Positions 2,480-43,426 of a stretch of 44,183 nucleotides of DNA are shown here, one piece after another. The notes beneath the pieces are model-generated. The model worked only from the letters and a program-made list of their open reading frames with translations, had not been told where the DNA came from and did no database searches. The stretch is from Escherichia phage Psq-1. Location of the stretch: the sequence record PQ595991.1; one strand, written 5' to 3'. Position numbers and translations under genes: made by a program. The number at the start of each line of letters is the position of its first letter. The stretch's first letter is position 1.

Positions 2480-2682
2480 GCTTGACTTGCAACCAACATA
2501 GAGGCCATACTGCAACCAACCAATAAGAGGAGTAATCAAGATGGCACGTAACGATATTTGGGTATTAGCGATCTGGACCACCGCGGCTTTTATCGGCATG
2601 GTTATTTGCGAATTGATATAACCCGCCGCCATACGGACCGTGATATATTGTCCACGGTCCACTAATCAGGAATTAATTAAAT

Positions 2683-3825
2683 ATGCACCCGCAAACTAAA
2701 ATTACCGACGAGCAATTGACCGCAGAAATTCAGGCAGGGACTACGGTTAAAGAGATTGCGAAGGAATACGGCATTGCACTTCGTAACGTCTACATGCGCA
2801 AAGCCCGCCTGTCGAAAAAGGGGATTGGTCACGGCAATGATGCCGTGATCCGTAAGCGCGTTGCCGATGGTTTTGGGGTTAAGCGCGTATCGGCCCTGGT
2901 GCGCGGCAATGGCGAAGAGGTCATGTCGTGGGTCATCACTGAGCAGGACAAGGAGCGCCAACTCGAAGCCATGCGCGCTGTTGTCGAGGGTATGAACAGC
3001 GAAATCACACCGGCAGCGCCAGTAAACGCCCCGCCAGTCCCGATCCAGGCGCTCGACTTGCTCAACCTGTACACAGTGTCCGACTTCCACTTGGGAATGC
3101 TGGCATGGGGCGAGGAGACTGGCGAAGATTGGGATATGGCGATTGCTGAAGACCTGTTCTACCGCTGGTTTGTCGAAGCCTTCGCCCGCGCACCGGACGC
3201 AGGCACTGCCGTTATCAATATCCTCGGAGATATGGCCCACTTTGACAGCCTCGACGCCGTCACACCCGCCAGCGGTCACGTACTGGACGCGGATACCCGC
3301 TACCAGAAACTGGTCCGCTATATGATTCGCATGGTGCGCAACGTGGTTGACCTGGCGCTGCAAAAACACCACAAAGTAAAACTGCTAATCGTTCAGGGTA
3401 ATCATGACGAATCGGGTATGATTTGGCTTGCTGAGATGTTCAATACCCTGTATGAGAACGAGCCGCGCGTCGATGTGGACACGTCCCCGGACGTCTACAA
3501 AATGGTGCAGCACGGTAAGACCACGCTATTTTTCCACCACGGGCACAAAGCGCGATTCGATGTTATCGAGCAGGTTATGATCTCTAAATTCAGACAGGCG
3601 TTCGGGTCGAGCGAATACAGCTACGCGCACGTAGGCCATTTGCACCACCAGAAGATTGTCGAGTCTCGCAACATGATTGTTGAACAGCACCGGACGCTCG
3701 CAGCGAAAGACGCCTACGCCAGTCGTGGCGGTTGGATGTCCGGTCGCAGCGCCAACGTCATTACCTACAGCGCCAACTACGGCGAAGTAGCGCGCTTAAC
3801 CATTAGCCCGGAAATGTTGAAATGA
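2683..3825 (+). CDS. HTH domain fused to calcineurin-like metallophosphoesterase (380 aa)
   Basis: N-terminal ~110 aa with HTH-like TVKEIAKEYGIALRNVYMRKARL. C-terminal domain has all five metallophosphoesterase motifs: DFHLG (DxH), ILGDMAHFD (GDxxD), VQGNHDE (GNHD/E), FFHHGH, HVGHLHH (GHxH). Confidence 0.6.
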   Translation: MHPQTKITDEQLTAEIQAGTTVKEIAKEYGIALRNVYMRKARLSKKGIGHGNDAVIRKRVADGFGVKRVSALVRGNGEEVMSWVITEQDKERQLEAMRAVVEGMNSEITPAAPVNAPPVPIQALDLLNLYTVSDFHLGMLAWGEETGEDWDMAIAEDLFYRWFVEAFARAPDAGTAVINILGDMAHFDSLDAVTPASGHVLDADTRYQKLVRYMIRMVRNVVDLALQKHHKVKLLIVQGNHDESGMIWLAEMFNTLYENEPRVDVDTSPDVYKMVQHGKTTLFFHHGHKARFDVIEQVMISKFRQAFGSSEYSYAHVGHLHHQKIVESRNMIVEQHRTLAAKDAYASRGGWMSGRSANVITYSANYGEVARLTISPEMLK

Positions 3826-4034
3826 TCAGACAAGTATTCATGAGCACGCAGGCCACCCGCCTGGAAGAGCTACGCAAGCAACTAGAAGGCTTGCGCCGAT
3901 TTGAACGAACGGCAGCGGCAGTCGGAATGTCGATGGACGAGAGGATCGAAATACTGTCGCAAATACGCTACACAGAAGGAGCGATAAGAGAAGTACAAAG
4001 CATGTTAACCCGATACTACGGGCGCGACGTTTAA
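3822..4034 (+). CDS. hypothetical protein (70 aa)
   Basis: Track ORF with ATGA overlap to the upstream gene; helical composition, no motif recognised. Confidence 0.35.
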   Translation: MIRQVFMSTQATRLEELRKQLEGLRRFERTAAAVGMSMDERIEILSQIRYTEGAIREVQSMLTRYYGRDV

Positions 4035-4052
4035 ACCGCATAGCCTGCCGAT

Positions 4053-4081
4053 TTGGTGGGCTTTTTTGTGCCTGTTATAAT
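4053..4081 (+). promoter_or_regulatory. candidate sigma70 promoter with extended -10 (TGtTATAAT)
   Basis: TATAAT at 4076-4081 preceded by TGT; weak -35 TTGGTG at 4053-4058 with 17-bp spacer; upstream of the packaging genes. Confidence 0.35.
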
Positions 4082-4130
4082 CCCCCTTAGATGGCAGGGC
4101 CGTCTCCTATGTTGCCGATGGTCGGCGCAT

Positions 4131-4703
4131 ATGAACAAAAGGGCTTATATCATGGCAGAAATCAAAGTTAAGGGCCGACGCGCCAAACTGGACGGGCGAG
4201 TAGCAGTAACCCCGCGTCGTAAACCAGGCGAGCAAACAGAGCATACCAATCTCGGACCGGAAATCGAATACGGAAAGCGCCGTAAAGGCGGCAAATGTGG
4301 ACGACCTACTGACTACCGATCCGTTTACTGCGACCAGCTTCGCCGCTATTTTGCCGACGCCGACGCATGGCAGGTCAACTACTCCGATAAAGGCGCTGCG
4401 CAAGTAATCCCTCGCAACAAAATGCCGACCTTCGGTCGATTTGCCGCTGAAATCGGCGTAGGCGTAGCTTGCCTGTATCGCTGGGCGCGTGCGCATGAGG
4501 AGTTTGCCGAGGCGATGGCGGACGCAATGGAACTGCAGAAAACTTTCCTGATGGAAGCCGGTGGTGTGACCATCGCGGCAGGCTTCGCTACATTCCTGCT
4601 TAAAGCAAACCACGGCGTCCGCGACGATGTACCGCTGGATGACGACGAAGATGATAACGGCGACGTAGTTGTCGAACCTTCCGGCAAAGGCCAGGGTGAA
4701 TAA
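4131..4703 (+). CDS. terminase small subunit (putative)
   Basis: Position immediately upstream of TerL with TAATG overlap; HTH-like PTFGRFAAEIGVGVACLYRWARAHEEFAEA; acidic C-terminus. Start chosen at internal ATG 4131; track ORF opens at 4053. Confidence 0.6.
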   Translation: MNKRAYIMAEIKVKGRRAKLDGRVAVTPRRKPGEQTEHTNLGPEIEYGKRRKGGKCGRPTDYRSVYCDQLRRYFADADAWQVNYSDKGAAQVIPRNKMPTFGRFAAEIGVGVACLYRWARAHEEFAEAMADAMELQKTFLMEAGGVTIAAGFATFLLKANHGVRDDVPLDDDEDDNGDVVVEPSGKGQGE

Positions 4704-6088: not shown

Positions 6089-6099
6089 GGAAACCGACC

Positions 6100-9029: not shown

Positions 9030-9141
9030 CCCGTCCGCAGACCCCGACGAGGATTTGATGATTGACGTGAAAAATATGGAATGCGGGGCGAAGCTAAGGG
9101 CGCAGGTGCTGGAGTTGCAGCAAATAATTAAGGGGCCGTAA
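8911..9141 (+). CDS. o-spanin (Rz1-like outer-membrane lipoprotein)
   Basis: ATG 8911 preceded by AAGAGG; signal peptide MLRALTALIVVLMLSAC with lipobox LSAC; Pro-rich mature part with extra Cys; overlaps and extends past the i-spanin frame. Confidence 0.55.
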   Translation: MLRALTALIVVLMLSACGSSNAPLMPLTESALRPPCKFDSPSADPDEDLMIDVKNMECGAKLRAQVLELQQIIKGP

Positions 9142-9153
9142 TGGCCCCTTTTT
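9131..9153. terminator. bidirectional rho-independent terminator between convergent genes
   Basis: AGGGGCC-GTAAT-GGCCCCT hairpin with TTTTT on the plus side and A-run on the other. Confidence 0.6.
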
Positions 9154-9155
9154 CG

Positions 9156-9920
9156 TTAGCGAGGAATGCCGCAAATCTCGTTGAGTGTTTTCACGTCCAG
9201 CGCCACTGCCGTGGATTTGGGCTTGTCCGTGTATGGGATGAATTGCTCGACTTCAGGCCATGCCTTAATCAGCTTCTTGTCTGTATTGTGCAGGTCCAGT
9301 ACACCGGTAACGGTGAGTTTGAACGCATCATACTTCGCGCGCAACTCGCGACGGGCTTTGTCGTTGCGGTCCAGGCGTTTGCAGAAATAATGATCTGCCG
9401 GGTAGTCTACGCGACCGCGAGGAAGATATATCGGCAACGCTTTCCCGTCCTCGTCCACTTCGCACACTGACGCTAACATAATTTCCTCATACCCAGGTAC
9501 GATATCACCGAGATCGGGCGAGAGATTATTCATATATTTCTCTTCCCAGTACCCGCGATGTATGCGGTGTTGGCGACCGTCGCCGCTCAATGACAAGGTG
9601 CGAACATTGCCGCCTGCGTTGATTTCAAAGGTGGCGTTATAGACGCTGCCGATACCCTTCGGGCGGTCGGAGTTATAACTATACGTCGCCTTGTTGGTGT
9701 ATACGCTGACGCCGTACATCTGCGACTGGTCATCGCGGATTAACAGGATATGCTCGCGTAGCGCGGCGAATGTGCGAATGCCGTCCGGCATACAGTCCAG
9801 CGTGATTGCGTACGCCAGGTCGCGAGAGTCCATCATGATTTGTTTGGCTTCGGTTGCGATTTCGTGGTCGCGCAGGATGTTAGCTAGGATCTGATTTTTA
9901 ATGTCTTTTGTCAGTCTCAT
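9156..9920 (-). CDS. hypothetical protein encoded antisense to the head module (254 aa)
   Basis: Start set at internal ATG 9920 with GAGGA 8 nt upstream; own upstream region with ATTGGTTGCA boxes and own terminator; no motif recognised. Confidence 0.5.
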   Translation of the reverse strand: MRLTKDIKNQILANILRDHEIATEAKQIMMDSRDLAYAITLDCMPDGIRTFAALREHILLIRDDQSQMYGVSVYTNKATYSYNSDRPKGIGSVYNATFEINAGGNVRTLSLSGDGRQHRIHRGYWEEKYMNNLSPDLGDIVPGYEEIMLASVCEVDEDGKALPIYLPRGRVDYPADHYFCKRLDRNDKARRELRAKYDAFKLTVTGVLDLHNTDKKLIKAWPEVEQFIPYTDKPKSTAVALDVKTLNEICGIPR

Positions 9921-10069
9921 TTTTGTGTCCTCATTGTTGGTGTGCAACCAATATAGCGCAACCAAGACAAGGATTGCAAGCTAATTTTGCGATTATTTTT
10001 ATCGCTGATAATATTAGAAGCGTGAAGTCGAGCGGGTGGCCTGCTCTGCCACAATCCCAGGGGGATAGC

Positions 10070-10774: not shown

Positions 10775-10778
10775 GCAG

Positions 10779-15540: not shown

Positions 15541-15870
15541 GGAGCGGGACAGGCGGGACGTCCCGTTTTGTCACGCACCTCTAAAACTGCATATTTACTC
15601 ACCACAATTGCATAAACTAAAAGCGGGACAGGCGGGACGTCCCGTTTTGTCCCACCCCCAAAATGTGAATGTCTATTCAGTTTTAGTGCATAAAGTAAGC
15701 GGGACAAAAAGCGGGACAAACCAGGGGCGGGACAAAGTGGGACAGCACCCCCGTCCCCGTCAGTGCTGCCGCGGGTTTTAGCCGATCGGGACAGGCGGGA
15801 CAAACCCCAGTCTTTCAGACTAGACGGGGGTCAGTTGGCCCCCTCGTCTGAGACTGAATAAGGTTTGTTT
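15541..15870. repeat. iteron-like repeat element, copy A
   Basis: About 12 GCGGGACA/GGGACA boxes, two 30-bp direct repeats (15543-15572, 15622-15651) each holding the palindrome CGGGACGTCCCG, TGCATAAA boxes, and a GC-rich inverted repeat (15808-15856). Segment 15687-15861 recurs at 43050-43222. Confidence 0.6.
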
Positions 15871-19989: not shown

Positions 19990-20730
19990 ATGTTGACGAA
20001 AAAGGTTAAAAGTGATATCGCCGCACACGTTGCGGCATGTCTGCCGGAAGAAGCCTGCGGCCTGGTTGTCATGGTGGGCCGCAAACAAGTTTTTATCCCG
20101 TGCCTTAACGTGTTCGAAGACCCCACCGGCGCGCGCTCTCGAAAGGACGCGTTTACAATTAGCGATATGGCCTGGATGGATGCCGAGGATATGGGCGACG
20201 TCGTGCGCGTAGTCCACTCGCACCCAGGTCAGCGCGAGTTAACCCCGTCGTTGGGCGACGTTAACGGATGCAACGGCAGCGGCGTCGTCTGGGCCATCAC
20301 TAACGAATATGGCGACTTTATCGAGATCGACCCTGAAGATCCTCCGCTGGTGGGGCGTCGATTTGTTCTCGGAATTACGGATTGTTACGGCCTCGTCATG
20401 GACTGGCACAAAAAGCAGGGAGTAAACCTGCCAGACTTCCGCGTGCCATATAACTGGTGGGAGACAGGCGAGAATCTGTATATGGATAATTGGTACGGCG
20501 CGGGCTTCAGGGAGTGTGAGGAAAATACGCCGGGGGCAATGGTAATTATGAAAATCAGCGCGCCAGTACCTAACCATGCCGGGATATTCCTTCCAGGCAA
20601 CCAACTACTACACCATATCTACGGCAGTCTGTCGAGTGTGATACCCTTCCGGTCAGGATTTTTCCGCGACAATGTGGTTAAATGGGTACGTCATAAAGAC
20701 CTACCGGGGAATATAACAGAATGGCAATGA
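19990..20730 (+). CDS. tail assembly protein (lambda K-like; JAB/MPN plus NlpC/P60)
   Basis: JAB motif VHSHPGQ and NlpC/P60-like Cys in GITDCYGLV. Confidence 0.75.
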   Translation: MLTKKVKSDIAAHVAACLPEEACGLVVMVGRKQVFIPCLNVFEDPTGARSRKDAFTISDMAWMDAEDMGDVVRVVHSHPGQRELTPSLGDVNGCNGSGVVWAITNEYGDFIEIDPEDPPLVGRRFVLGITDCYGLVMDWHKKQGVNLPDFRVPYNWWETGENLYMDNWYGAGFRECEENTPGAMVIMKISAPVPNHAGIFLPGNQLLHHIYGSLSSVIPFRSGFFRDNVVKWVRHKDLPGNITEWQ

Positions 20731-24300: not shown

Positions 24301-24781
24301 CACGTTTAACCATGCGGGTGGTAGCGCCACTTATAGCCTTAAGGCTGGCGTGACGTATAACGGGGCTTACTATGATGCCGGTATGCAGCTTTCAGTTGTT
24401 GCGGAAGGTGGCGCGGTTAAATCCCGCATCGCGTTCAAGGCGGACCAGTTCTACATCATGCACCCATCTAATGGGTCGCTTTCGTCCGCGTTTATCGTTG
24501 ACGGCGGTCAGGTGTACATTGACACCGCACGCATCAAGAACGCGTCTATCAACTTCGCGCAGATCACGGACACGCTGCAGTCGAATAACTGGAATCCAGG
24601 CAACAGTGGCTGGCGTATCGCGAAGGATGGCGGGGCGGAGTTCAACAACGTAACGGTACGAGGCAACTTGTTCGCTACTACTGGTAACTTCGGATTCTCT
24701 GGAGGGTCGGTACAGATCGACGCCACCGGCATTAACGTGCCGTTACCTGGCGGGGGTAGGGTGAAAGTGGGGACGTGGTAA
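21335..24781 (+). CDS. central tail fibre / host specificity protein (lambda J-like, 1148 aa)
   Basis: Size, position after the I-like gene, and N-terminal region typical of J-family tip proteins. Confidence 0.85.
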   Translation: MTIVYDVTGHKGGGGKQHTPQETPDSLHSLAKIRILLALGEGEFESITSASELRQRVYLDGTPIQNADLSENFPGARVEFRPGTQHQDVIHGFSAVESEQSVGVKLENGTPWVRQINDTSLDAVRVRIGIPALYTSEDNGDLVGGRIDYKIVVYTDNADPREFTFAAVGKTMSLYERDHRIELPPNVNTGWRVEVHRITADSTSAKVVNDIQVQSITEIIDARLRYPLTALLFVEFDAKAFQNIPRVSIKCKGRKVLIPNNYDPITHTYSGDWDGTFRRAWTDNPAWHWYDICITERFGLGRRIKPQMLNRYALYQIAQRCDQLVSDGNGGREIRFKNDMYIQSQTDAWTVLKDLAAIFAGMTWWGNQMLNIVSDQPVAAVSHTITNASVIDGRFDYASGSQKTRYSTFAVAYGNPKNHYDDAIATGQRVELVRRHKINRLDITAIGCTRESEAQRRGHWALISNQLDQQVSFKVGMEGLFFIPGSVVAIADTNISGGFETRGGRLLSDPGTRTVLNTDSEITFRPGDKFLVRTDSGNVETREIASVNGNKVTLKTALDADPIPDQPFCVDGDDIQLQKFRITDLEYDDSTSTFSVRGIEYNDSKYDAVDNGARLDPGIFTQVPDGVMKGPESVTITPSQISSQGQLITNVDIVFPPVKDAVVYEIQWRRTSLQNMAVQWGNDWVNIPRTASNGAHIPNVFSGNYQARVRAIGMGEISSPWVSSAITPVEGRLGGLNAPIITIAISGLHQILWKWNHNNAATDISYTELEVRKTGETEWKFLTNVPYPGAEYAQTSLEFGIYQQLRARVADKIGNLSDWSAPFEGQVSDKVDEYMKGLDDEFLTSEDGKHFQEAIDTIPQGIYESMLTDAQQLINARSEYQGIYAEIKVAYNVATDAHKAVAQLETLIGTRLDDAEASIHTLQTAQSTHEQAFAQYQQTVAAKFGEQEAAIQQVQTATADVAGALAEYKTQVAAQFGQQSAAIEQKMTSTFNHAGGSATYSLKAGVTYNGAYYDAGMQLSVVAEGGAVKSRIAFKADQFYIMHPSNGSLSSAFIVDGGQVYIDTARIKNASINFAQITDTLQSNNWNPGNSGWRIAKDGGAEFNNVTVRGNLFATTGNFGFSGGSVQIDATGINVPLPGGGRVKVGTW

Positions 24782-24788: not shown

Positions 24789-24810
24789 GGGGCCATCCGG
24801 CCCCTTTTTT
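24789..24810. terminator. bidirectional rho-independent terminator
   Basis: GGGGCC-ATCC-GGCCCC hairpin with TTTTTT downstream on plus and an A-run on the other side, between convergent genes. Confidence 0.6.
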
Positions 24811-25774
24811 AATAGATGTTAGGAATTACGAGTAACGGGGTGGGTACTGCAATATTTTTACCCGGCATTTGGAATTGCTGCCGTGAATAGTTGCCGATTA
24901 CCCGGTTTTTGGCAATGCGCACATTACCGCCTGCCATTCGAATCCCGTTCATTCGAACGTGATTGTAGCCGCCGTTGTTCTCAATGAGCGCGCCGGTATA
25001 CGAAAGCTGGACCAGGCTATTGCCTATGTACTGATCGCCGCCGCCGATATAGATAAGGCGGTCATAAACAAATGGCTTATTCACTGTTGAGAACGTGACC
25101 TGACCCTGGTTGTTTGTCATGGTTATGCCGTTTCCAGGGGTGGGTGGCGTATTGTTGAATATAACCAGGTCCATTTCAACGGCAGCGCCTACGTCGTCAA
25201 TCCCACCATAGGACGCATTACGGACGATAATACTTCCGCCATCGAAGCCGACCGACACGTTTCCGTCGTCCCAGCGCGCGAATGGGACACCACCTACAGG
25301 TAACGGCATACTTCCGTTCACCCACACGCGCTGCGCATATTGGCAGGTCATTAGCCTGGATACATTTGATATGGCGGTGAAGTCCGTCGAGTTCGCCACC
25401 AGTAACCCTGCGTTGCGCGAACCCACCGGCAACACTTCCATGATCACCCCGCCCCATGTTGGAAGCCCGCTATATGCGCCATATGCGTCTTCACCTCGCA
25501 AGGTGATTCCGCCATCCCCGTTACGTTGTACTGAGGTGACGTAGAAAGGGTCGGGCAAGACCAGTGTCTGGTCGAATACTTCTATAACTTCAACGGGGCT
25601 TGTGAGCGCGACGACCAGATCTGACCCTGGCGTTAGCTGAGTGTTAATAGTAAGCGTCTTATCAGACTGGCAGCGCTGATAGAATGAGGTACAGAATGAC
25701 GGAGCGCGAAGTCCGGCTGTTATCTCCATCACCGGCCTTCCGTCGTTGTAGTCTATAAGTATTCCAGCGCCCAT
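24809..25774 (-). CDS. hypothetical Gly/Asn-rich protein, possible receptor-binding protein (321 aa)
   Basis: ATG 25774 with GGGAG upstream, overlapping the stop of the lipoprotein gene; beta-rich composition (GGGDQYIGNS, NNGGYNH); antisense between J and the tail fibre. Product assignment is by analogy only. Confidence 0.4.
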   Translation of the reverse strand: MGAGILIDYNDGRPVMEITAGLRAPSFCTSFYQRCQSDKTLTINTQLTPGSDLVVALTSPVEVIEVFDQTLVLPDPFYVTSVQRNGDGGITLRGEDAYGAYSGLPTWGGVIMEVLPVGSRNAGLLVANSTDFTAISNVSRLMTCQYAQRVWVNGSMPLPVGGVPFARWDDGNVSVGFDGGSIIVRNASYGGIDDVGAAVEMDLVIFNNTPPTPGNGITMTNNQGQVTFSTVNKPFVYDRLIYIGGGDQYIGNSLVQLSYTGALIENNGGYNHVRMNGIRMAGGNVRIAKNRVIGNYSRQQFQMPGKNIAVPTPLLVIPNIY

Positions 25775-25776
25775 AA

Positions 25777-25998
25777 TTACCACTCCCGAGATTTAACTGA
25801 TACCGTACCAGAGAAGTTGCCGTCACTATCCGCGGACAGGCCGGTGAAGCGCATGTCGACCTCCCCAGCAGGGACTTTTTGCCCGTCAACGTAGCGCAAC
25901 ATGCAGCTTCCGTAAGCTACCGTAATGCAATCGCCGTTGTTACGCTCTACCGCGCAGCCGGACAGAAGAACCGCACAAATCACAATTAATGTTTTCAT
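25777..25998 (-). CDS. small lipoprotein, Llp/Cor-like superinfection-exclusion candidate (73 aa)
   Basis: ATG 25998 with AGGGGA upstream; signal peptide MKTLIVICAVLLSGC with lipobox LSGC; four further Cys in the mature part. Confidence 0.6.
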   Translation of the reverse strand: MKTLIVICAVLLSGCAVERNNGDCITVAYGSCMLRYVDGQKVPAGEVDMRFTGLSADSDGNFSGTVSVKSREW

Positions 25999-26078
25999 GG
26001 TATCATCCCCTATATTTGGTTGAGTTTTAGTATTGCACCGCTCAACCAAGAATGCAACCAATTTATGAGGATTCAGCT

Positions 26079-27731: not shown

Positions 27732-27753
27732 AGGGGCCATTCGGCCCCTTTTT
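27732..27753. terminator. bidirectional rho-independent terminator
   Basis: AGGGGCC-ATTC-GGCCCCT hairpin followed by TTTTT, between convergent genes. Confidence 0.6.
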
Positions 27754-28327
27754 AATTTGAGTTTTCCCAGTCCATTTTGCGCCGCACAAGCGGGCTTTCG
27801 TAGTATTCCTTACCTTCCACTTCCACTAAATGCCAGTCATTCACAATCACGTATGGCTCTGCTATATCCTCAATCACGCCGTGCGCGCTATGCTGCCCGA
27901 ACGACACGCCAACCAGAATAACTCCGGCAACCCGACGGGAAAGATACTCGCGGGCACAACGGGCCTCAACCAGACCGCGACGGATGCCGCTGGTGGCTTT
28001 GACCTCATATGTCCAGACGGCATCAATCATGTGCTCTTTGTAGTCGGGACCGGATTTTACCTTGCGCTTGCCGACCATGATAATATCGCCGCGGTCAATG
28101 GTATTGGCGCTAAACAGGCCGGTACGCATGAGCAAGCCTTGAGGGATACAACTGCGCCCGCCTGCTTGCCCTTCCAGGTACATGCCCGCAAACATCTCGC
28201 CCAGCACACCGACCAGTCGGCTTTGCTTGCACGCGTCAGACTTTAAGCGCCATTGGTCAAACTCGATGCTTGCTATCATTGCCGCCAGGTGGAATTGTTT
28301 ACCAGATATTTCATATTCGCCGTACAT
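27752..28327 (-). CDS. hypothetical protein with PD-(D/E)XK-like signature (191 aa)
   Basis: RGDIIMVGKRK...GPDYKEHMIDAVWTYEVK resembles the D...(D/E)xK core seen in the VRR-NUC protein of this genome (PDLIIIINGKIVFVEVK). Weak. Confidence 0.35.
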   Translation of the reverse strand: MYGEYEISGKQFHLAAMIASIEFDQWRLKSDACKQSRLVGVLGEMFAGMYLEGQAGGRSCIPQGLLMRTGLFSANTIDRGDIIMVGKRKVKSGPDYKEHMIDAVWTYEVKATSGIRRGLVEARCAREYLSRRVAGVILVGVSFGQHSAHGVIEDIAEPYVIVNDWHLVEVEGKEYYESPLVRRKMDWENSN

Positions 28328-28369: not shown

Positions 28370-28891
28370 TTATTTCAGTGCGCCAGTCACCAGTGTTTTT
28401 TCCATGTTGCGGAAGTCTTCCGGCGTCATGAGGATTTTGGACCCATCCTCGCCGGTGAGCACGACCATAGGCTGGACGTATTGCTCTGCGATGCCGAAAT
28501 TAGCGGCTTTAACCGTCTTGCCTGCCGATGACGAAGGATGCCACGCCCCCGCGGTGGCGATGGGCCAACCTTTAAGGCTGTCGTATTGCGCTGCCGTTGT
28601 ATCAACCTGAATCTCGTCGTGTACGGTCATGTACGACTCGCCCAGCAAAGCCGCATACGCTACCAGGTCGACGATATTGTCCTCCTGGTGCTTACGGTGC
28701 TGGCGTACCAGCTTCAGGCAGATCAAGAAGGTCCAGGCTTCTTGCTCGGTCAGGTCTCGACCGGTAAGCGCGTTAAACACGGCAGCAATTTGTTTTGCGC
28801 TGCGTTCCTCTTTCGCGTTGTCATAGCCGTTTTCTTTTCCTCGCTGTTCCATAGTGGTGGCGGCGTTTTTGCAGTATTCGTATGCTTTCAT
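28370..28891 (-). CDS. hypothetical protein (173 aa)
   Basis: Track ORF with RBS AAAAAGGA and a sigma70-like promoter upstream; no motif assigned. Confidence 0.45.
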   Translation of the reverse strand: MKAYEYCKNAATTMEQRGKENGYDNAKEERSAKQIAAVFNALTGRDLTEQEAWTFLICLKLVRQHRKHQEDNIVDLVAYAALLGESYMTVHDEIQVDTTAAQYDSLKGWPIATAGAWHPSSSAGKTVKAANFGIAEQYVQPMVVLTGEDGSKILMTPEDFRNMEKTLVTGALK

Positions 28892-28932: not shown

Positions 28933-28961
28933 ACTATAGTGCAACCAACTATTGGTTGCAA
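28933..28961 (-). promoter_or_regulatory. sigma70-like promoter overlapping an inverted ATTGGTTGCA pair
   Basis: Minus strand reads TTGCAA (-35), 17-bp spacer, TATAGT (-10). The inverted repeat TGCAACCAA-CTA-TTGGTTGCA (28940-28960) overlaps it. Confidence 0.4.
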
Positions 28962-30590: not shown

Positions 30591-30625
30591 CAATATAATG
30601 CAACCAATCTAGTTACGCAACCAAT

Positions 30626-33322: not shown

Positions 33323-33329
33323 GTATTAA

Positions 33330-33534: not shown

Positions 33535-33563
33535 ACTATACTGTTAAGCGACCAATTCAGCAA
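33535..33563 (-). promoter_or_regulatory. candidate sigma70 promoter overlapping an ATTGGTTGC box
   Basis: Minus strand reads TTGCTG (-35, inside TTATTGGTTGCTG), 17-bp spacer, TATAGT (-10). Confidence 0.35.
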
Positions 33564-33822
33564 CCAATAAATCACAGTCGGCTATGTTGTCTATAACGCG
33601 AACGTCCGCACCGCGGCGGGCCATTCGCTCATGTTCTCGTACCTGGTGCGGCTTTGGTTTACCGCCTGGGCGCTTCACTTCGACGAAAACTATCTTGCCG
33701 TTGATGATGATTATCAGGTCGGGCGCTCCTGCGCGCCCCTCCCATGCCACTTTACGGCAGAATCCGCCGACGGCTTTCACCCTCTTCATAAGGTAACTTT
33801 GGATCTTGCCTTCTGGTGTCAT
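33544..33822 (-). CDS. VRR-NUC domain nuclease (92 aa)
   Basis: APDLIIIINGKIVFVEVKRPGGKPKPHQ matches the PD-(D/E)XK core of VRR-NUC proteins. Confidence 0.7.
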   Translation of the reverse strand: MTPEGKIQSYLMKRVKAVGGFCRKVAWEGRAGAPDLIIIINGKIVFVEVKRPGGKPKPHQVREHERMARRGADVRVIDNIADCDLLVAELVA

Positions 33823-36339: not shown

Positions 36340-37068
36340 TTAACGGCGGCGACGTTTACGTGGTGCTTCGTCTTCGTCGTCGTCCTCATCTTCGTCATCG
36401 CGTGGCTTACGACGTTTACGAGGTTTCTCGTCTTCATCTTCGTCGTCGTCATCGCGGCGCTTGGATTTTTTGGACTTGCGCGGGCTTTCATCTTCGTCAT
36501 CGTTGTCCAGGTCTTCGTCGGAGCAAGAAGCCCCGCCACCACCGAAGGATTCACCATCATCGCGGAAGCGAAGACCCAGCAGGCCGGCCCCGAGGCCTTT
36601 ACCGTTGGTATTGTTCCATGCCCAAATATCCAGGGACACGTTGCAATAACAACCGGAGTAGATCTCCCGGCCTTCGATCTCGTCGCCTTCTACGGTCAGA
36701 CCTTGTTCCGTCTGCTTCTCGCCGAGTGACGTTTGAATGTTTGGTTGTTTGAACGATTTGGTGTTGATATACAACATGCCTTCGAATTCTTCGGTTACTT
36801 CGTCGCGCTCGTCACCGTCGCGAACAGCGCATTCCTTAGAATCCTGGGCGTAGTGGCGCTCCATCCACTTATCGGCGTTCTTCTCGGATTTCAGCTTATC
36901 GGTGAGCACTGCGCGCGCTGCCGCTTCCACTTTGTCCACCTGCGGATCTTCTTTATCCAGAAGAATCACGGCACGGTATGCCGGTTTCTGGCCATCCTTT
37001 TTAGGGGTATCGCGCTCCCAAATATTAAGGAAACATACACGCACATTTTTCAGGTTGACTTTAGCCAT
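36340..37068 (-). CDS. DUF2815-like ssDNA-binding-type protein with charged low-complexity tail
   Basis: N-terminus MAKVNLKNVRVCF typical of this family; C-terminal 80 aa alternate acidic runs with KRRK/PRKRRRR blocks. Confidence 0.55.
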   Translation of the reverse strand: MAKVNLKNVRVCFLNIWERDTPKKDGQKPAYRAVILLDKEDPQVDKVEAAARAVLTDKLKSEKNADKWMERHYAQDSKECAVRDGDERDEVTEEFEGMLYINTKSFKQPNIQTSLGEKQTEQGLTVEGDEIEGREIYSGCYCNVSLDIWAWNNTNGKGLGAGLLGLRFRDDGESFGGGGASCSDEDLDNDDEDESPRKSKKSKRRDDDDEDEDEKPRKRRKPRDDEDEDDDEDEAPRKRRRR

Positions 37069-37158
37069 TTTCAAATTCCTCATTTTCACATGTATCGGGG
37101 TTATTGTGAGCCACCCCGTTCGGCTTGGTTGCTAATCTACTTGGTTGCGCCTAAGCGG

Positions 37159-37401
37159 TCAAGCACTTTCATTAAAAAGATTTCTGGTCACGTAGTTGGT
37201 GGCGTTCTCGATCCAGCTTAACGGCGGTCGGTCGATGTTCTTCTCCACCAAGTCGACGGCAGCGTCACTATATCCATCGTCCAGCCAGCGGGTCGGATGG
37301 CGAATCATCCAGGCCACCATTAACACGCCTTGCACGCAATGCAGGATAAAGCCCAGCGCGCCGAGCAAAAACATCAATAAGATTGCAAATACTTTATTCA
37401 T
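37159..37401 (-). CDS. small membrane protein (80 aa)
   Basis: Two hydrophobic segments (FAILLMFLLGALGFILHCV, GVLMVAWMI). Confidence 0.4.
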   Translation of the reverse strand: MNKVFAILLMFLLGALGFILHCVQGVLMVAWMIRHPTRWLDDGYSDAAVDLVEKNIDRPPLSWIENATNYVTRNLFNESA

Positions 37402-38824: not shown

Positions 38825-39012
38825 TATTCCACCCTTGAAAACTGAGCAATGTAATAGTCATGTTTAACACCGGCCCGCTTCGCGGCTTCGTTCATGGTAG
38901 CCGCCAAACCTCTGGCTTGAGTCCAGCAGCAATTCCAGTTCTGATTCATAACGATTTCTGGTTGCTCATCGCCGGTAATACGGCAGCGAAATAAAACGAA
39001 AAATATAGCCAT
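38824..39012 (-). CDS. hypothetical protein (62 aa)
   Basis: Track ORF in an operon gap; low confidence. Confidence 0.3.
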   Translation of the reverse strand: MAIFFVLFRCRITGDEQPEIVMNQNWNCCWTQARGLAATMNEAAKRAGVKHDYYIAQFSRVE

Positions 39013-39264
39013 TTATTTTGTCTCCCAGCGGTCAATTGTTTTTGCTTCGGATGCAACGGCGAAACGAACATATTCCAGATTTGAATCAGCCCAAATATAA
39101 AAGTCGGGATTAGTAAAGGTGGCGCGCTTAATTTGCGCGGGTGTGTTGCGGCGTTTATCAATTACGGCAACGCGCGATTGAAAGCTGCCGATGCGTTCGA
39201 ATAGCCAATAGTACGGGCGCTGGTCGCGGGAATCCACCGCCTCGATTAGCGTGAAGCGTGCCAT
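39013..39264 (-). CDS. hypothetical protein (83 aa)
   Basis: Track ORF with GAGGA-type RBS. Confidence 0.4.
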   Translation of the reverse strand: MARFTLIEAVDSRDQRPYYWLFERIGSFQSRVAVIDKRRNTPAQIKRATFTNPDFYIWADSNLEYVRFAVASEAKTIDRWETK

Positions 39265-39277
39265 TGTCTCGTCCTCT

Positions 39278-39304
39278 AAAAATAGGCCCGCAGATTAGCG
39301 GGCC
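39278..39304 (-). terminator. rho-independent terminator or attenuator on the minus strand
   Basis: Stem GGCCCGC / GCGGGCC with 6-nt loop, followed on the minus strand by TATTTTTA. Confidence 0.4.
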
Positions 39305-39312
39305 GGATAATA

Positions 39313-39822
39313 TTAGTCTTCCAGTTCGAAATAGGTTTCGACGATTTCTTTCAGATCTTTGTGGAAGTCTTCGACGTCGTCATCTTCCAGTTTAGCGATT
39401 GATTTGATCTCGAACGATTCCAGCAGGTCGTCAAATTCGTCGTTGGCGTCGTCGTCATCACCACCGGCGATAATCGCGGCATACTGTTTGATTTCGTCGC
39501 GCATCTCTGCCAGCGGATCGGCATCTTTCTTACCTTTGCCTTTCGCCGTGGCTTTTTTACCTTTCGCCGGTTTTTCGTCTTCGGCTTCATCGTCGTCATC
39601 TTCTACGACTTCTTTTTTGGCCTTACCTTTCGCCGGTGCTTTTTTGGTTTTCGCCGGTGCTTCGTCTTCAGCGTCGTCATCTTCTACGACTTCTTTTTTC
39701 GCCTTAGACGGCTTCTTGTCTTCCTGCGTACCAACGGCAGCGCCAACGGTTTCATAATGTTTAGCGATTGTTTCCAGTGCTACTACGCCGCGAGTAATCA
39801 GGTTTACGATTTGTTCAAACAT
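39313..39822 (-). CDS. highly charged tandem-repeat protein (169 aa)
   Basis: ATG 39822 with GGAGA upstream; two 26-27-aa repeats KKEVVEDDD-EDE-PAK-KKA-AKGK-KK plus acidic D/E runs; nucleotide-level tandem repeat at about 39540-39720. Confidence 0.5.
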   Translation of the reverse strand: MFEQIVNLITRGVVALETIAKHYETVGAAVGTQEDKKPSKAKKEVVEDDDAEDEAPAKTKKAPAKGKAKKEVVEDDDDEAEDEKPAKGKKATAKGKGKKDADPLAEMRDEIKQYAAIIAGGDDDDANDEFDDLLESFEIKSIAKLEDDDVEDFHKDLKEIVETYFELED

Positions 39823-40018
39823 GGTATATCTCCGATTGGTTAAGTTTAGGTGTCGACCATTAACTTCGTCGGTGGCCTTAACATATTGCCAGGTTACGCG
39901 TTCTCCCGTTCGGGTAGTGGACCTGGTTATATAATCACGGTTGGGAATCCTGACACTTCGATCCGGCCCCTGCGTTGCCCCTCTCCAGTTTGCGTCCTGC
40001 ATCCTGTCGACGAGGTGA

Positions 40019-40047
40019 ATATTAGATTGGTTGCATGAGGGAGTCAA
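40019..40047 (-). promoter_or_regulatory. sigma70-like promoter for the minus-strand early/replication operon
   Basis: Minus strand reads TTGACT (-35), 17-bp spacer containing TGCAACCAA, TAATAT (-10). Confidence 0.4.
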
Positions 40048-40059
40048 CAACTAATTTCA

Positions 40060-40115
40060 AAAAAAAAGCGCCGAAGCAAAATGCGACGGCGCTAACCAAT
40101 AAGAGACAATGAGAC
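40060..40115 (-). ncRNA. candidate small RNA (~56 nt)
   Basis: Minus-strand promoter TTGAAA-17-AATAAT (40122-40150) followed about 55 nt later by terminator hairpin GCGCCG...CGGCGC and a 9-U tract (plus 40059-40092); no ORF. Confidence 0.25.
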
Positions 40116-40163
40116 GGGGGTATTATTACACGCGTGCGCGCCCGTTTCAATATTCCAAAGGAG

Positions 40164-40192
40164 TTGACACCCTGCGGTTTTAGGTGTAGTTT
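40164..40192 (+). promoter_or_regulatory. sigma70-like promoter for the HTH and primase genes
   Basis: Perfect -35 TTGACA (40164-40169), 17-bp spacer, weak -10 TAGTTT (40187-40192). Confidence 0.4.
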
Positions 40193-40223
40193 CGTTGGTC
40201 ATTAACCAACCGGAGACAGAACA

Positions 40224-40553
40224 ATGAATATCGACGACGCAATCGAAATGTTAACTAAGACTGTTTGCAGTGAGACTAGCCGGTCTTGGGCATATACAGA
40301 TGCCGTTGGGGCGGTGCTATTTGAAATCGAACGTCTGCGACTTACCGAAAAAGAATTGCGCGCGAAGCTGGAATTACTCAACGGTACGGCAGCCAGCAAG
40401 CTGCAAAAGCACAATGAAGAAATGGAAGAATACAAAAAACAGGTTATCCGTTTGCGCGATGAGGGGAAGTCATGGGCGATGATCGCCGAGTTGACAGGAA
40501 TTAATCAGAGCACCGTGCGCTCCTGGGTACGCAATAACAAAACTTCGAAATAA
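40224..40553 (+). CDS. HTH domain protein, putative regulator (109 aa)
   Basis: C-terminal HTH GKSWAMIAELTGINQSTVRSWVRNNK; coiled-coil middle; first gene of the plus-strand early unit. Confidence 0.5.
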   Translation: MNIDDAIEMLTKTVCSETSRSWAYTDAVGAVLFEIERLRLTEKELRAKLELLNGTAASKLQKHNEEMEEYKKQVIRLRDEGKSWAMIAELTGINQSTVRSWVRNNKTSK

Positions 40554-40723
40554 GGCAACGGCAATGAGCTTAATTAAATTCGCTGTAACAAGACCCTCAT
40601 GGGCGATGATCGCCGAGTTGACAGGAATTAATCAGAGCACCGTGCGCTCCTGGGTACGCAATAACAAAACTTCGAAATAAGGCAACGGCAATGAGCTTAA
40701 TTAAATTCGCTGTAACAAGACCC
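40470..40723. repeat. exact 127-bp tandem duplication (40470-40596 and 40597-40723)
   Basis: Both copies read identically by eye; they span the last 28 codons of the HTH gene and the first 11 codons of the primase gene. Confidence 0.9.
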
Positions 40724-42955
40724 GCTAAAAAAGGCGAAAAAGCCAGGGCGGAAAACTTCCAGATGACAACTGATGAATTTTTCGAATTTATCAATGACGC
40801 GAAAGAAATCTCATCGGTGCACATCAACAAGACCGAGGATAAAGCTGAGTATGCGCGCCGCAAGCGCAAGGCCGATGGCATCGTGGCATATACCAGTGAC
40901 GGCCTACGCCGTAAGACCAGCGCGGTGGACCGCTCGATCCTGTTCTTTGATATTGACCGCACCGACACTCGCACCTTGCGCCGCTGCCGTAAGGCGTTCA
41001 TTGACGCGGGTCTGGAACACGTATTCCACACAACCACCGGCGATCGCCACCCGCTGAAAGGCGGCACGCGTTGCGCCCGTTTCCTTGTGCTCACAGATAA
41101 ACCAGTACCGGCGGAAGACCTGGGCCGCGTCCAGTACGCGCTGTTAGACCAACTTGGTCTGTCAGATGTGGACTTCGACGATTGTACGAAGGACACAAAC
41201 CGTCTTATGTACCTGCCACACCAGCAGTCTGTCATTAAGTGCCACCACGGCAAACGTGCCAATGTGCGGCGTCTGCTACGCCTGGCGGATAAGCTGGGAG
41301 TGGAGAAAGAGGAAGTACGCCGCGAGCTTACCCAGGGCGACGACGCAGTGGCGGACGGGATTCTGGACTGGTGCTTCCAGGCAGGATTCGAGGAGTTATC
41401 TTCCGGTCGCGGTTATGAAGTTCCGTGCCCGAACGAACATCTGCACAGCGGCGAAGGGTCGACGGCTATCATGGTCAAGGATGGCGAGATCCGTTTCAAG
41501 TGTATGCACACCGGCAACGAGTGTTGCTCGGAGCTAAATAGACACCAGCACCTTGCGCTACGTCTCATCGGGATACCGGACCACCTGAACGTCGAGCCGC
41601 ACAACATGTCACGTAAGCAAATCGCCGCCATCCTGCCAGGTCTGGACGACGAGGAAGTCGAATCCTTATATGACCACATTGTTGATGCGGTTGGCGACGG
41701 CGAAGAATATGGCGTGTGCACCGATGCGGATCTTGATAACGAGCCGGTTGCGCTGTTCAGTAAGCACGACCCGATCATCGAGGGGTTGATTAACTTTAAA
41801 TCGACCTGGTACATGGCGGGTGAGTCGAATATCGGTAAGTCTTTCTATGTGCTGGGGCAGATGGGCGCGGTTGCCGCCGGTATTCCGTTTGGCGGTGCGA
41901 AGGTCGTCCAGTCGCATTGCTTCTATTTCGATGCGGAAGGCGGCGAAGCCTCCAACCAGCGCAAAGAAGCATTGCAGATTAAATATGAGCACGACCTGGA
42001 CAAGCTGCACATTATAGACCTGCAGTCACGCGGCTGGGATATCACCAGCAAGTCCGGTTTGCGCGAAGTTATCAGCTTTATCAACCGCACCGCTAACGGC
42101 GAACCGGTTGGCCTGGTGGCGTTCGACTCACTTAACCAGACTGTTGCGCTGCGGTCCGCCGATGCTAAACCGTTTGACGAGAACAACGCCAGCGATATGG
42201 GAGAAGTGGTCAAAGCGCTGAAAGCCATTGCGGAAAATACAGGTGGCAGTGCGGGCGTCATCCACCACCCGGCGAAAGGTGCAAACGGCAGCAGAACCCC
42301 ACGCGGATCCGGCGCACTGCATGGTGCTGTCGATTCAGCTTTCTTCCTGGAACAGCCGGACGACAACCAGCCAGGACAACTCAACCTGTATCACGAAAAA
42401 TCACGTAATGGCATCAAGCAAGCGCCGCGTGGCTTCGTCCTGCTCAAGTGCAAGGTGGAGGTGGATCTCCGCAAGTCAGAAGCGTTCGCGTCGCACCAGT
42501 CCACCAGCACCGGGCCGGACTTCGGAGACGTCGTTGCCGGTTGGGACGTCAAACCAATTGCGTCCACCCCGCGCGACGAGACTCTGTACCTCGTACCAGT
42601 AGCCCTGGCACCGTTCGCTATAGAACAGGCAAAGGCCGCTGGCAAAGCCGCAGTTAAGGAAGAAAACGCCGCCGGTCCGCGCAACGAAAAAGAGAAAGTG
42701 CTTTATGCGGCCCTGGAAAAACTGATGGAAGATAACCCTAACCATACTGGATTCAGTAAATCGGCAATTGTCCGCCAGGCGGGACTCGCGAAGGGTGGTA
42801 CTTCGACGAAAGCAATCGACGATATGGTGGAGCGTGGCGTGATTGGTTTTTATACAGATCCGCACACCGGGGCCATATATGGGTCGTCGAATTTAGTCAT
42901 CAAATCGGATATTCCCATAACGCTTTCGGCGACCGACGACGACCTGAAGGATTAA
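40691..42955 (+). CDS. DNA primase/helicase-type replication protein (754 aa)
   Basis: Zn-binding-like HLHSGEGS...FKCMHTGNECC; P-loop GESNIGKS and Walker B-like LVAFDSLNQ in the C-terminal half. Confidence 0.6.
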   Translation: MSLIKFAVTRPAKKGEKARAENFQMTTDEFFEFINDAKEISSVHINKTEDKAEYARRKRKADGIVAYTSDGLRRKTSAVDRSILFFDIDRTDTRTLRRCRKAFIDAGLEHVFHTTTGDRHPLKGGTRCARFLVLTDKPVPAEDLGRVQYALLDQLGLSDVDFDDCTKDTNRLMYLPHQQSVIKCHHGKRANVRRLLRLADKLGVEKEEVRRELTQGDDAVADGILDWCFQAGFEELSSGRGYEVPCPNEHLHSGEGSTAIMVKDGEIRFKCMHTGNECCSELNRHQHLALRLIGIPDHLNVEPHNMSRKQIAAILPGLDDEEVESLYDHIVDAVGDGEEYGVCTDADLDNEPVALFSKHDPIIEGLINFKSTWYMAGESNIGKSFYVLGQMGAVAAGIPFGGAKVVQSHCFYFDAEGGEASNQRKEALQIKYEHDLDKLHIIDLQSRGWDITSKSGLREVISFINRTANGEPVGLVAFDSLNQTVALRSADAKPFDENNASDMGEVVKALKAIAENTGGSAGVIHHPAKGANGSRTPRGSGALHGAVDSAFFLEQPDDNQPGQLNLYHEKSRNGIKQAPRGFVLLKCKVEVDLRKSEAFASHQSTSTGPDFGDVVAGWDVKPIASTPRDETLYLVPVALAPFAIEQAKAAGKAAVKEENAAGPRNEKEKVLYAALEKLMEDNPNHTGFSKSAIVRQAGLAKGGTSTKAIDDMVERGVIGFYTDPHTGAIYGSSNLVIKSDIPITLSATDDDLKD

Positions 42956-43049
42956 ATTTTGCGCGCATTGGTTGCCATTTTGAGTGTTTTTAGCTGGTCG
43001 CATTGGTTGCCGTGTAGTGTAAAAATATTGAATAGTTATGCAATAAAAC

Positions 43050-43222
43050 TGCATAAAGTAAGCGGGACAAAAAGCGGGACAGACCAGGGGCGGGACAAAG
43101 CGGGACAGCACCCCCGTCCCGCCCCGGATGACGCGGCCTGGCGAGGAGCGGGACAGGCGGGACAACTACCAGTCTTTCAGACTAGACGGGGGTCAACGGC
43201 CCCCCTCGTCTGAGACTGCATA
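43050..43222. repeat. iteron-like repeat element, copy B
   Basis: Six GCGGGACA boxes, a TGCATAAA box, inverted GTCCCGC...GCGGGAC, and the same GC-rich inverted repeat as copy A (43170-43217). AT-rich stretch at 43021-43050. Confidence 0.6.
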
Positions 43223-43370
43223 AAATCCGGGATTGCAAAATACACGGCAGCACATTGTAAATTGCGGTCGTCGCGGAACTAGGCAACCAATGCGGGATGC
43301 AGAACGTGGTGTGAAAAATGCAGTCACAGCAGATAGCGATCAACTTTTTCATACGCGTGATTAATATTGG

Positions 43371-43399
43371 TTGCATTCACCTCGGCGCCTTGCTATATT
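43371..43399 (+). promoter_or_regulatory. sigma70-like promoter built from two ATTGGTTGCA boxes
   Basis: -35 TTGCAT (43371-43376), 17-bp spacer, -10 TATATT (43394-43399). Confidence 0.4.
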
Positions 43400-43426
43400 G
43401 GTTGCACACCAACAGGAGGGCGGAAC

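Follow-up and report, generated by a model that had tools for sequence, protein, structure and literature searches.

Phages in which one encoded protein acts at many scattered sites are well known, and the closest described systems frame the present case. The C1 protein of bacteriophage P1 maintains lysogeny through a non-palindromic operator found in more than 12 promoter copies over many operons of the genome, sometimes paired. The gp71 stoperators of L5 and Bxb1 are short asymmetric sites of 13 bp that occur in about 20-30 copies per genome, lie nearly all in short intergenic gaps, and are extremely conserved. Lambda Cro is a small helix-turn-helix (HTH) protein encoded by the first gene beside divergent early promoters. 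Here we describe a short box, TTGGTTGC, that recurs at the predicted promoters of Escherichia phage Psq-1 (sequence record PQ595991.1; the whole stretch of 44,183 nucleotides analyzed is called the window) and that may be the operator of a genome-wide regulon read by the small HTH protein encoded at 40224-40553. Our comparisons with described systems draw on established knowledge.

In mode of action, the nearest parallels would be the dispersed operators of P1 C1 and the stoperators of L5, and lambda Cro would be the nearest in gene position and proposed role; by sequence, the box system belongs to none of these families. As in P1, one phage-encoded protein would serve many operons. However, P1 is temperate, whereas no integrase, partition or immunity module is found in the annotations of this phage group in the records examined; the 17-bp operator and the protein of P1 are unrelated in sequence to those described here; and the HTH protein lacks relatives in bacterial genomes (homologs are absent from 185,579 of them, and there are therefore no prophage relatives). 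With the L5 stoperators the box shares shortness (8-10 bp), asymmetry, copy number, intergenic placement and conservation. By contrast, stoperators have a single orientation with respect to transcription and block elongation within the operons of a temperate phage, whereas the boxes here stand in both orientations and inside promoters. Like Cro, the HTH protein is proposed to down-regulate early promoters and its own gene, but Cro recognizes 17-bp pseudo-palindromes in two operator clusters rather than asymmetric 8-mers at about 10 promoters, and the two proteins share no sequence or fold similarity past the generic HTH. The MotA box of T4 is likewise short and phage-specific, overlapping the -35 element or taking its place while the sigma70 -10 element is kept, with many copies per genome; it has, however, a fixed position (about -30) and orientation, whereas the box here is variable and three promoters keep a near-consensus TTGACN. 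No MotA or AsiA homologs turned up in Pfam and PHROG scans. Finally, the start-associated sequences of Cluster K phages are also short conserved intergenic motifs of one phage lineage, found by genome inspection and with an unproven trans-acting factor, but they keep a fixed distance from the start codon and include the ribosome-binding site, whereas it is promoter hexamers that set the place of the boxes here. Phage HTH regulators with operators spread over the whole genome are a well-known kind of system, and the present case appears to be newly described: neither the box nor the regulator's function was found described in the literature searched or among the annotated features of vB_EcoS_011D5, SO-1, CHD5UKE2 and WF5505, and a literature search for the motif string returned primer sequences only, with nothing on such a box for Dhillonvirus, HK578 or SSL-2009a promoters.

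An exhaustive scan of both strands of the window found 19 exact copies of TTGGTTGC, dispersed across 10 loci. The expectation is 1.80 ± 1.26 with a maximum of 5, and none of 100 dinucleotide shuffles attained 19. Sites with at most one mismatch number 55 versus 43 expected, the excess being the exact copies; the one-mismatch variants alone (36 versus about 41 expected) are at background level, and the motif is therefore sharply defined. A gene map built from homology leaves 7.55% of the window non-coding, and 16 of the 19 copies lie wholly within this fraction (binomial p = 9e-16). Two further copies sit at gene 3′ edges (28952 and 33560). In an unbiased comparison of all 8-mers, TTGGTTGC ranks first by non-coding enrichment, followed by the GCGGGACA repeat family. 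The flanks give the consensus R-TTGGTTGC-V across four genomes, T preceding the box in only 1 of 66 copies and following it in 4 of 66. Chance or composition as the source of the boxes is excluded.

These counts confirm the central claim of an earlier note on this DNA, which had reported a recurrent intergenic box and had named an exhaustive count with a coding comparison as a check; copies inside coding regions are not comparable in number. Of the 20 coordinates that it listed, 18 are exact 8-mers, whereas 26016-26023 and 26042-26049 are both TTGGTTGA, and only the former had been flagged as a variant. Placement between genes or at gene boundaries, claimed there for every copy, holds for 18 of the 19 exact copies. 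The exception, 20597-20604, lies inside a gene and had been overlooked, as had a conserved weak variant, TTGGTCGC, at 33548-33555. Both inverted repeats are real, that at 28940-28960 having 9-bp arms and a 3-nucleotide loop and that at 26016-26049 having the arms TTGGTTGAG/CTCAACCAA. Two independent promoter scans reproduced the -35, spacer and -10 placements described at 43371, 28956, 40027 and 43394.

The window is close to a complete Dhillonvirus genome. Fifty-nine of the 65 annotated genes of vB_EcoS_011D5 were placed on it by tblastn transfer, and about 160 GenBank phage records match it at 87-94% identity, nearly all of them Escherichia or Shigella Dhillonvirus and among them the named relatives HK578, SSL-2009a, JL1, EP23 and SO-1. 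On the plus strand, one block starts with the HTH gene at 40224 and continues through the primase-helicase gene, small genes and lysis genes to the structural genes, ending at 24781. On the minus strand, genes for replication, recombination and modification occupy a block from 39822 down to 27752, and two short inserts lie at 9156-9920 and 24809-25998. For comparison we used vB_EcoS_011D5, SO-1, CHD5UKE2 and WF5505, two metagenomic relatives of 20 kb each that were found through homologs of the HTH protein (L124 and L126), and, as a control, the Guernseyvirinae phage vB_SenTO17.

The box is present throughout these relatives, with 19 copies in vB_EcoS_011D5, 21 in SO-1 (1.9 expected), 20 in CHD5UKE2 and 23 in WF5505, its terminal repeat included. 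The boxes are under far stronger purifying selection than their surroundings: in nine box-bearing non-coding regions aligned at syntenic sites from five Dhillonvirus genomes, 135 of 136 box columns are invariant versus 943 of 1359 (69%) other non-coding columns (Fisher p = 4e-19). Bases separating paired boxes vary freely, for example at the promoters P30620 and P43371 (promoters are named as in Table 1). At P30620, both boxes are invariant in six of six genomes while the 9 bases between them vary. The box and the TTGGTCGC variant of P33563 are each kept in seven of seven genomes, as is the first box of P2482, whose second box is kept in four of five close genomes, the fifth (L001) having a TTGGTCGC variant instead. 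The box inside the tail-assembly gene also occurs in four relatives (L001, L003, L128 and L129), but its presence there is only weakly informative because the gene itself is about 97% conserved.

Conservation extends to the divergent L124 and L126, whose replication proteins are 65-84% identical to those of the window; L124 aligns to the window across about 70% of its length at about 71% identity. Each carries 13 exact boxes in its 20 kb at the corresponding promoters, against 0.73 expected from shuffles of L124. In both, the P40047 spacer is wholly filled by two tandem boxes, and the TTGGTTGCC form is used at the counterpart of the origin-like region B. By contrast, vB_SenTO17, which shares a primase-helicase (43% identical) but lacks the HTH protein, has two box copies, as many as chance would give, and its non-coding sequence shows terminator hairpins but no motif comparable to the box. 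Every box-bearing genome examined also has the HTH gene, which this control lacks, a co-occurrence within one lineage. A search of viral contigs for box pairs (TTGGTTGC-N3-30-TTGGTTGC) yielded mainly unrelated chance matches and did not help to delimit the distribution.

Promoters were located by two scans, a consensus tool and our own weight-matrix scan, and positions are given with the -10 hexamer counted as -12 to -7. Both scans found a good sigma70-like promoter at nine of the 10 box loci, each facing a gene with a ribosome-binding site, and the 16 non-coding boxes lie over or next to promoter-like hexamers. A box overlaps eight of the 23 strongest sigma70-like sites of the window, versus about 0.5 expected from the sequence covered, the boxes spanning about 2% of positions. 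A terminator-like hairpin precedes most box-bearing promoters. Most of these promoters carry two boxes apiece, with start-to-start spacings of 11 to 35 bp and mixed orientations, and the boxes at 2489/2512, 37125/37141, 40027 and 28952 run opposite to local transcription. Five kinds of placement recur. Forward boxes start at -39 in four promoters, their 3′ half (TTGCNN) forming the -35 hexamer; reverse boxes start at -33 and -29; boxes in either orientation start at -22 or -21 in six of nine promoters and end 1-2 nucleotides ahead of the -10 hexamer; forward boxes start at -8 in two promoters (TATATTGGTTGCA), contributing the last two -10 bases and the start region; and reverse boxes start at -6 or -5 in two promoters.

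With the box serving as -35 in about five promoters, as part of -10 in two and as spacer in six, a plain sigma70 element is ruled out as a class; and because its position and orientation vary, the box is not a fixed promoter element. The earlier note had also considered a phage-specific promoter class, for which we found no support: there is no fixed distance to or orientation toward the -10 hexamer, good hexamers are present, and the scanned proteins, the homology map and the relatives' annotations contain neither a phage RNA polymerase nor a complete sigma factor. The operator for a phage-encoded regulator that the note proposed instead is consistent with every test run, namely the varied position and orientation, the purifying selection and the co-occurring HTH protein. 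Box-bearing promoters score 8-14 bits and the box-less P40164 and P40150 score 12-13 bits; since the former score as well as the latter, no activator seems needed. Moreover, the boxes lie within the RNA polymerase footprint, where repressors bind, so that their occupancy should exclude host RNA polymerase. The spacers of the box-bearing promoters measure 17-18 bp; MerR-type proteins are the sole activators known to bind the spacer, and they need spacers of 19 bp.

The best candidate for the box-binding protein is encoded at 40224-40553, the opening gene of the rightward operon, adjoining the divergent early promoter region. Among 30 proteins of the early and accessory regions scanned against Pfam, PHROG and NCBIfam, it is the sole clear DNA-binding protein, matching HTH_23 (4.6e-7), Sigma70_r4_2 (2e-6) and HTH_28 (5e-6). 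Its sigma-like match covers a region-4-type HTH of about 45 residues and scores 20.8 bits versus a full-sigma cut-off of 42.9. Depositors have labelled its PHROG family 'transposase', 'resolvase' or 'Gam', evidently from the HTH alone. An AlphaFold model (mean predicted local distance difference test score, pLDDT, 84) consists of a short N-terminal helix, a 54-residue coiled-coil-like helix (residues 26-79) and a C-terminal tri-helical HTH. A fold search with this model yielded no family assignment, only generic HTH matches (resolvase, insertion sequence (IS) transposase, LuxR/GerE and sigma r4), all with E > 0.5. A sequence search of the PDB returned only a designed repeat protein and coiled-coil proteins, the latter matching the long helix. 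The second candidate of the earlier note, the N-terminus of the phosphoesterase at 2683-3825, fared less well: its LuxR/resolvase-type HTH is sub-threshold (E = 0.0015 on the isolated domain), and it is disfavored because no homolog exists in the 20 kb of L124 or L126, including the syntenic lysis-terminase slot, though both retain boxes.

Homologs of the 40224-40553 protein were found only in Dhillonvirus-like phages among GenBank phages, IMG/VR and a 5.8-billion-protein set. Residues 47-106 are almost invariant across 15 homologs, including the recognition helix STVRSWVRN, and the C-terminal half of the window's protein shares 84% identity with those of L124 and L126, which tops the other small proteins and equals the polymerase and helicase. 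Residues 1-45 (40224-40360), by contrast, are hypervariable, cannot be aligned between alleles and fall into several unrelated allele types among relatives. The most divergent allele, a 149-residue replacement in CHD5UKE2 that is only 47% identical, retains SW..IAE.TGIN.ST.R.W, and the phage retains its 20 boxes. Judged from these alignments, the hypervariable N-terminus looks like the outcome of diversifying selection or cassette exchange on a partner-binding surface, and the pairing of an invariant DNA-binding half with a hypervariable N-terminal half hints at an arms race.

In our judgment, the box is very probably a cis-regulatory site that binds a protein at promoters. With more reserve, and on balance only, we favor a reading in which the 40224-40553 protein, as a Cro-like global down-regulator, recognizes R-TTGGTTGC-V as its operator throughout a genome-wide regulon. 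We infer the identity of the binder, the repression and the reality of the predicted promoters alike. The HTH protein would be made from the box-less, near-consensus sigma70 promoter P40164 and would then bind boxes in the core of nearly all other phage promoters: those of the leftward replication and recombination genes (P40047, P37162, P33563, P30620 and P28961), the terminal-repeat promoter P43371, the late-operon promoter P2482 and the moron promoters P9979 and P26057. A protein bound over the -35 hexamer, within the spacer, or across the -10 hexamer and start site would exclude host RNA polymerase and lower promoter use, and promoter occlusion is most likely the mode of repression, as far as sequence can tell. 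A weak palindromic site at the start point of its own gene would give the protein autoregulation. The palindrome TTGGT-N5-ACCAA occurs three times in the window versus 0.05 expected, each time directly downstream of a -10 hexamer (P9979, P40164 and P43371); at P9979 it spans 9937-9951 and includes the box at 9944-9951. At P40164 it reads TTGGTCATTAACCAA (40195-40209) and begins 3 nucleotides past the -10 hexamer, and at the aligned position L124 and L126 have a full box, GCAACCAA. We consider the P40164 palindrome a putative weak autoregulatory operator.

Several points weigh against this reading. The promoters are predicted from consensus matches, and the -35 scores are inflated because the box itself holds two TTG triplets. 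The link between protein and box is co-occurrence within one genus, where most genes co-occur. No relative with an altered recognition helix was found among homologs in the 5.8-billion-protein set, viral contigs and GenBank phages, and because box and helix are both invariant, no co-variation between them is available. Boxes at P2482, the promoter of the late structural operon, are awkward for a simple repressor made early. The spacing of paired boxes, 11-35 bp with mixed orientation, is uncommon among coiled-coil dimers and points to monomer sites or to bridging of a flexible kind. Lastly, the three extended boxes around the origin-like array are not at strong promoters, which makes a second role, at an origin, possible.

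The alternative that survives best keeps the same protein-box pair but lets it act positively or both ways, aiding or substituting sigma70 region 4 at -39, by MotA/AsiA-like appropriation or as a class II activator, and repressing elsewhere, so as to form an early-to-late switch. The four promoters with a forward box exactly at -39 have non-consensus -35 hexamers (TTGCAT, TTGCGT, TTGCTG and TTGCAT), while the three near-consensus TTGACN promoters bear only reverse boxes, downstream of -35; the HTH matches Sigma70_r4_2 and extracytoplasmic function (ECF) sigma region 4, below the curated full-sigma cut-offs; and boxes at the late-operon promoter suit a switch better than pure repression. At each -39 promoter, however, an occluding position is also taken, either by a second box (within the spacer, or across the -10 hexamer and start site) or by a weak spacer variant, and judged as plain sigma70 promoters they reach 8-12 bits all the same. 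Sigma region 2 is missing from the protein, and no AsiA- or MotA-like partner turned up among the early proteins scanned against Pfam and PHROG. We therefore regard dual or positive action as unlikely, if worth keeping in view. Distinctly less likely still is a specific form of it in which the 109-residue protein is a detached 'sigma region 4' module that replaces or competes with sigma70 region 4, activating at -39, blocking at -22 and +1, and so switching host RNA polymerase between phage promoters. Its hypervariable N-terminus would then meet the polymerase or host defense. If true, this would be a compact one-protein sigma appropriation running the whole temporal program of a virulent siphovirus, and with about 20 sites per genome, the rising genome copy number would also titrate the protein.

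We think it very unlikely that the box is read by a host (enterobacterial) protein exploited by the phage. A conserved host reader would be expected to leave the box invariant though the N-termini of the candidate regulator differ greatly, and GTTGCATT, an extended form of some box copies, resembles the CytR octamer; yet this extension is present in only three of the 19 copies. No E. coli regulator is known to have an invariant TTGGTTGC in its consensus. The Salmonella phage vB_SenTO17, which has a related enterobacterial host, lacks the box above chance, and in all genomes examined box and HTH gene occur strictly together.

Two further explanations are highly improbable. In one, the boxes are loading sites of a Q-like antiterminator, and RNA polymerase joined there reads through operon terminators. 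Boxes between -35 and -10 and just past -10 are placed like the lambda Q-binding element and pause site; terminator-like hairpins lie inside both long operons, one directly downstream of P30620; and the depositors of WF5505 annotated about 20 terminators. But no scanned protein resembles the Q family in Pfam, PHROG, NCBIfam or the fold search, Q loading needs a fixed geometry whereas box orientation and position vary, and a fresh promoter directly follows most terminators, so that read-through is not obviously required. In the other, the boxes are signals for replication, recombination or module exchange, for example for a resolvase- or transposase-type HTH protein at the borders between gene modules. 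The HTH does resemble the domains of resolvases and IS transposases no less than those of regulators, the origin-like repeat array has three extended boxes around it, and boxes flank sites of differing gene content among relatives (the 9.9-kb moron slot and the allele of gp14); against this, the protein has no catalytic domain, its 109 residues being helices and an HTH, 16 boxes are tied to set promoter-like positions rather than to module junctions as such, and an 8-bp site is too short for homologous exchange. We rejected a sigma54 site (GG-N10-GC), as the GG and GC of the box are only 3 nucleotides apart and no pair spacing yields the required 12; an RNA-level signal (hairpins of the 5′ untranslated region, TTGGT...ACCAA stems), as other boxes are upstream of -10 or reversed and it gives no general explanation, the window having no Rfam match; and replication-origin iterons, as the boxes are dispersed over 10 loci rather than clustered in tandem, the pattern shown instead by GCGGGACA.

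Table 1. Box-bearing loci of the window, their predicted promoters (hexamers separated by spacer length in bp) and the candidate regulator gene; box positions are relative to the predicted start site.
Feature	Position	Strand or orientation	Details
P2482, predicted promoter	2482-2519	+	TTGACT-18-CATACT; heads operon of 26-residue open reading frame (ORF), phosphoesterase, terminase and structural genes; just past terminator 2452-2473
P2482 boxes	2489-2496; 2512-2519	both reverse	First in spacer (about -29); second directly past -10 (about -6 to +2)
P9979, predicted promoter	9944-9979	-	TTGCAA-18-TATATT; serves moron gene 9156-9920 (Nmad5 domain)
P9979 boxes	9958-9965; 9944-9951	forward	First in spacer (-22); second over -10 and start site (-8)
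Exact box deep in a gene, the sole such copy	20597-20604	-	Tail-assembly gene 19990-20730; TTGGTTGCC form
Divergent region	26016-26061	-	Between lipoprotein gene 25777-25998 (-) and tail-tip gene 26079 (+)
P26057, weak predicted promoter	26054-26061 (exact box)		Box provides -35 (TTGCAT)
TTGGTTGA variants	26042-26049; 26016-26023	-; +	Make 9-bp inverted repeat
P28961, predicted promoter	28933-28961	-	TTGCAA-17-TATAGT; genes 28370-28891 and 27752-28327
P28961 inverted box pair	28952-28959; 28941-28948	+; -	Spans -35 and spacer; perfect 9-bp palindrome
P30620, predicted promoter	30592-30624	-	TTGCGT-17-TATATT
P30620 boxes	30617-30624; 30600-30607	forward	First provides -35; second in spacer (-22)
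P33563, predicted promoter	33535-33567	-	TTGCTG-17-TATAGT; forward box 33560-33567 provides -35, in last codons of gene 33544-33822
TTGGTCGC weak variant	33548-33555		P33563 spacer
P37162, predicted promoter	37125-37162	-	TTGACC-17-TAGATT; single-stranded-DNA-binding protein gene 36340-37068
P37162 boxes	37141-37148; 37125-37132	reverse on promoter strand	First in spacer (-21); second at -5 to +3
P40047, predicted leftward early promoter	40019-40047	-	TTGACT-17-TAATAT; top-scoring promoter-like site in window
P40047 box, single	40027-40034	reverse	Ends 2 nucleotides ahead of -10
P40164, predicted promoter of HTH gene	40164-40209	+	TTGACA-17-TAGTTT; without full box
Candidate box-binding protein	40224-40553	+	109 residues; homolog of gp14 (vB_EcoS_011D5) and gp47 (SO-1)
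Origin-like 'region B'	42964-43294		Three boxes in extended 13-mer form CGCATTGGTTGCC
CGCATTGGTTGCC copies	42964-42976; 42999-43011; 43282-43294	direct; direct; inverted	
P43371, predicted promoter	43367-43412	+	TTGCAT-17-TATATT; gene 43427-43606 and small genes after it
P43371 boxes	43367-43374; 43398-43405	forward	First provides -35; second over -10 and start site, in palindrome 43398-43412

Individual loci have features of their own. Directly downstream of P2482, a 26-codon ORF (2541-2621, MARNDIWVLAIWTTAAFIGMVICELI) with a strong ribosome-binding site lies outside the homology map, its start kept in four relatives; its product is hydrophobic and, from its sequence, looks like a single transmembrane peptide. 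The moron served by P9979, on the minus strand within the head-gene block, matches Nmad5 (nucleotide modification associated domain 5) at E = 1e-58 and has a bidirectional terminator at 9130-9150. The cargo of this slot differs among relatives, the SO-1 gene being annotated as RusA-like resolvase or polymerase III beta. At P30620, the -10 hexamer directly precedes a 10-bp GC-rich hairpin and T-run (30591-30568, minus strand), a layout kept in the divergent L124. Speculatively, P30620 transcripts start within the 5′ arm of the hairpin and so escape termination, while read-through from upstream would stop.

In the divergent early region, P40047 has a leader of about 200 nucleotides (39823-40018, minus strand) before the first gene start at 39822, unusually long for a compact genome, and no ORF of at least 50 residues is assigned to it. 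That first gene of the leftward operon (39313-39822, minus strand) contains four CGTCGTCATC(TTCTACGAC) copies at 39375-39690, an internal acidic repeat on the coding strand; its product belongs to PHROG 3127 and is 43-55% identical in divergent relatives. The strong, box-less predicted promoter P40150 (40150-40122, minus strand; TTGAAA-17-AATAAT with TG, 12.3 bits) is followed about 30 nucleotides downstream by a GC hairpin and nine T's (gcgccgtcgcattttgcttcggcgc-ttttttttt), which would end a transcript of about 60-70 nucleotides just upstream of P40047. This transcript (40060-40150 region) could be a small RNA or leader. A minus-strand terminator annotated in WF5505 at 41916-41942, in the same divergent intergenic region, may correspond to the P40150 hairpin.

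At the right end of the window, the three CGCATTGGTTGCC boxes flank an A/T-rich stretch and the GCGGGACA array at 43059-43165, downstream of the primase-helicase gene. The window also contains 15 copies of a second repeat family, (A)AGCGGGACA(A/G), of which 13 are non-coding (p = 2e-13). The 385-bp gap ahead of the tape-measure gene has six (15544-15795) and the gap past the primase-helicase gene another six (43059-43165), all on the plus strand and with nested inverted repeats (CGGGACGTCCCG). GCGGGACA is clustered in an iteron-like manner at 15544-15795 and 43062-43157, and the SO-1 record annotates two similar repeat regions, A (upstream of the tape-measure gene) and B, at the counterparts of the two arrays. 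The iteron-like arrays at 15544-15795 and 43059-43165 may mark one or two replication origins. Another frequent word, ACGGCAGC/CGCTGCCG (30 copies, 23 on the plus strand), was rejected as a second signal; it is mostly coding, is also the commonest 8-mer in the unrelated vB_SenTO17, and is probably a codon or compositional effect. WF5505 was deposited with a 2026-bp direct terminal repeat, its left end aligning to 43327 of the window (repeat = 43327-44183 plus 1 to about 1170), and its P43371 counterpart lies within this repeat, 41-72 nucleotides from the physical left end. If the phage studied here is built like WF5505, its genome would end 41 nucleotides upstream of the box at 43367, and P43371 would be a terminal promoter present twice in each virion DNA.

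Dhillonviruses belong to the BASEL collection (PMC8594841). They are among the most often isolated E. coli siphoviruses and are used in defense-system and phage-therapy work, while the papers and records examined contain no description of their transcription program, the records annotating terminators only. The box gives a map of about ten transcription units together with one candidate master regulator. It also offers handles for engineering, namely promoters that one small protein might switch and sites to avoid for payload insertion. The interest would be greater if the protein proved to redirect RNA polymerase rather than merely block it.

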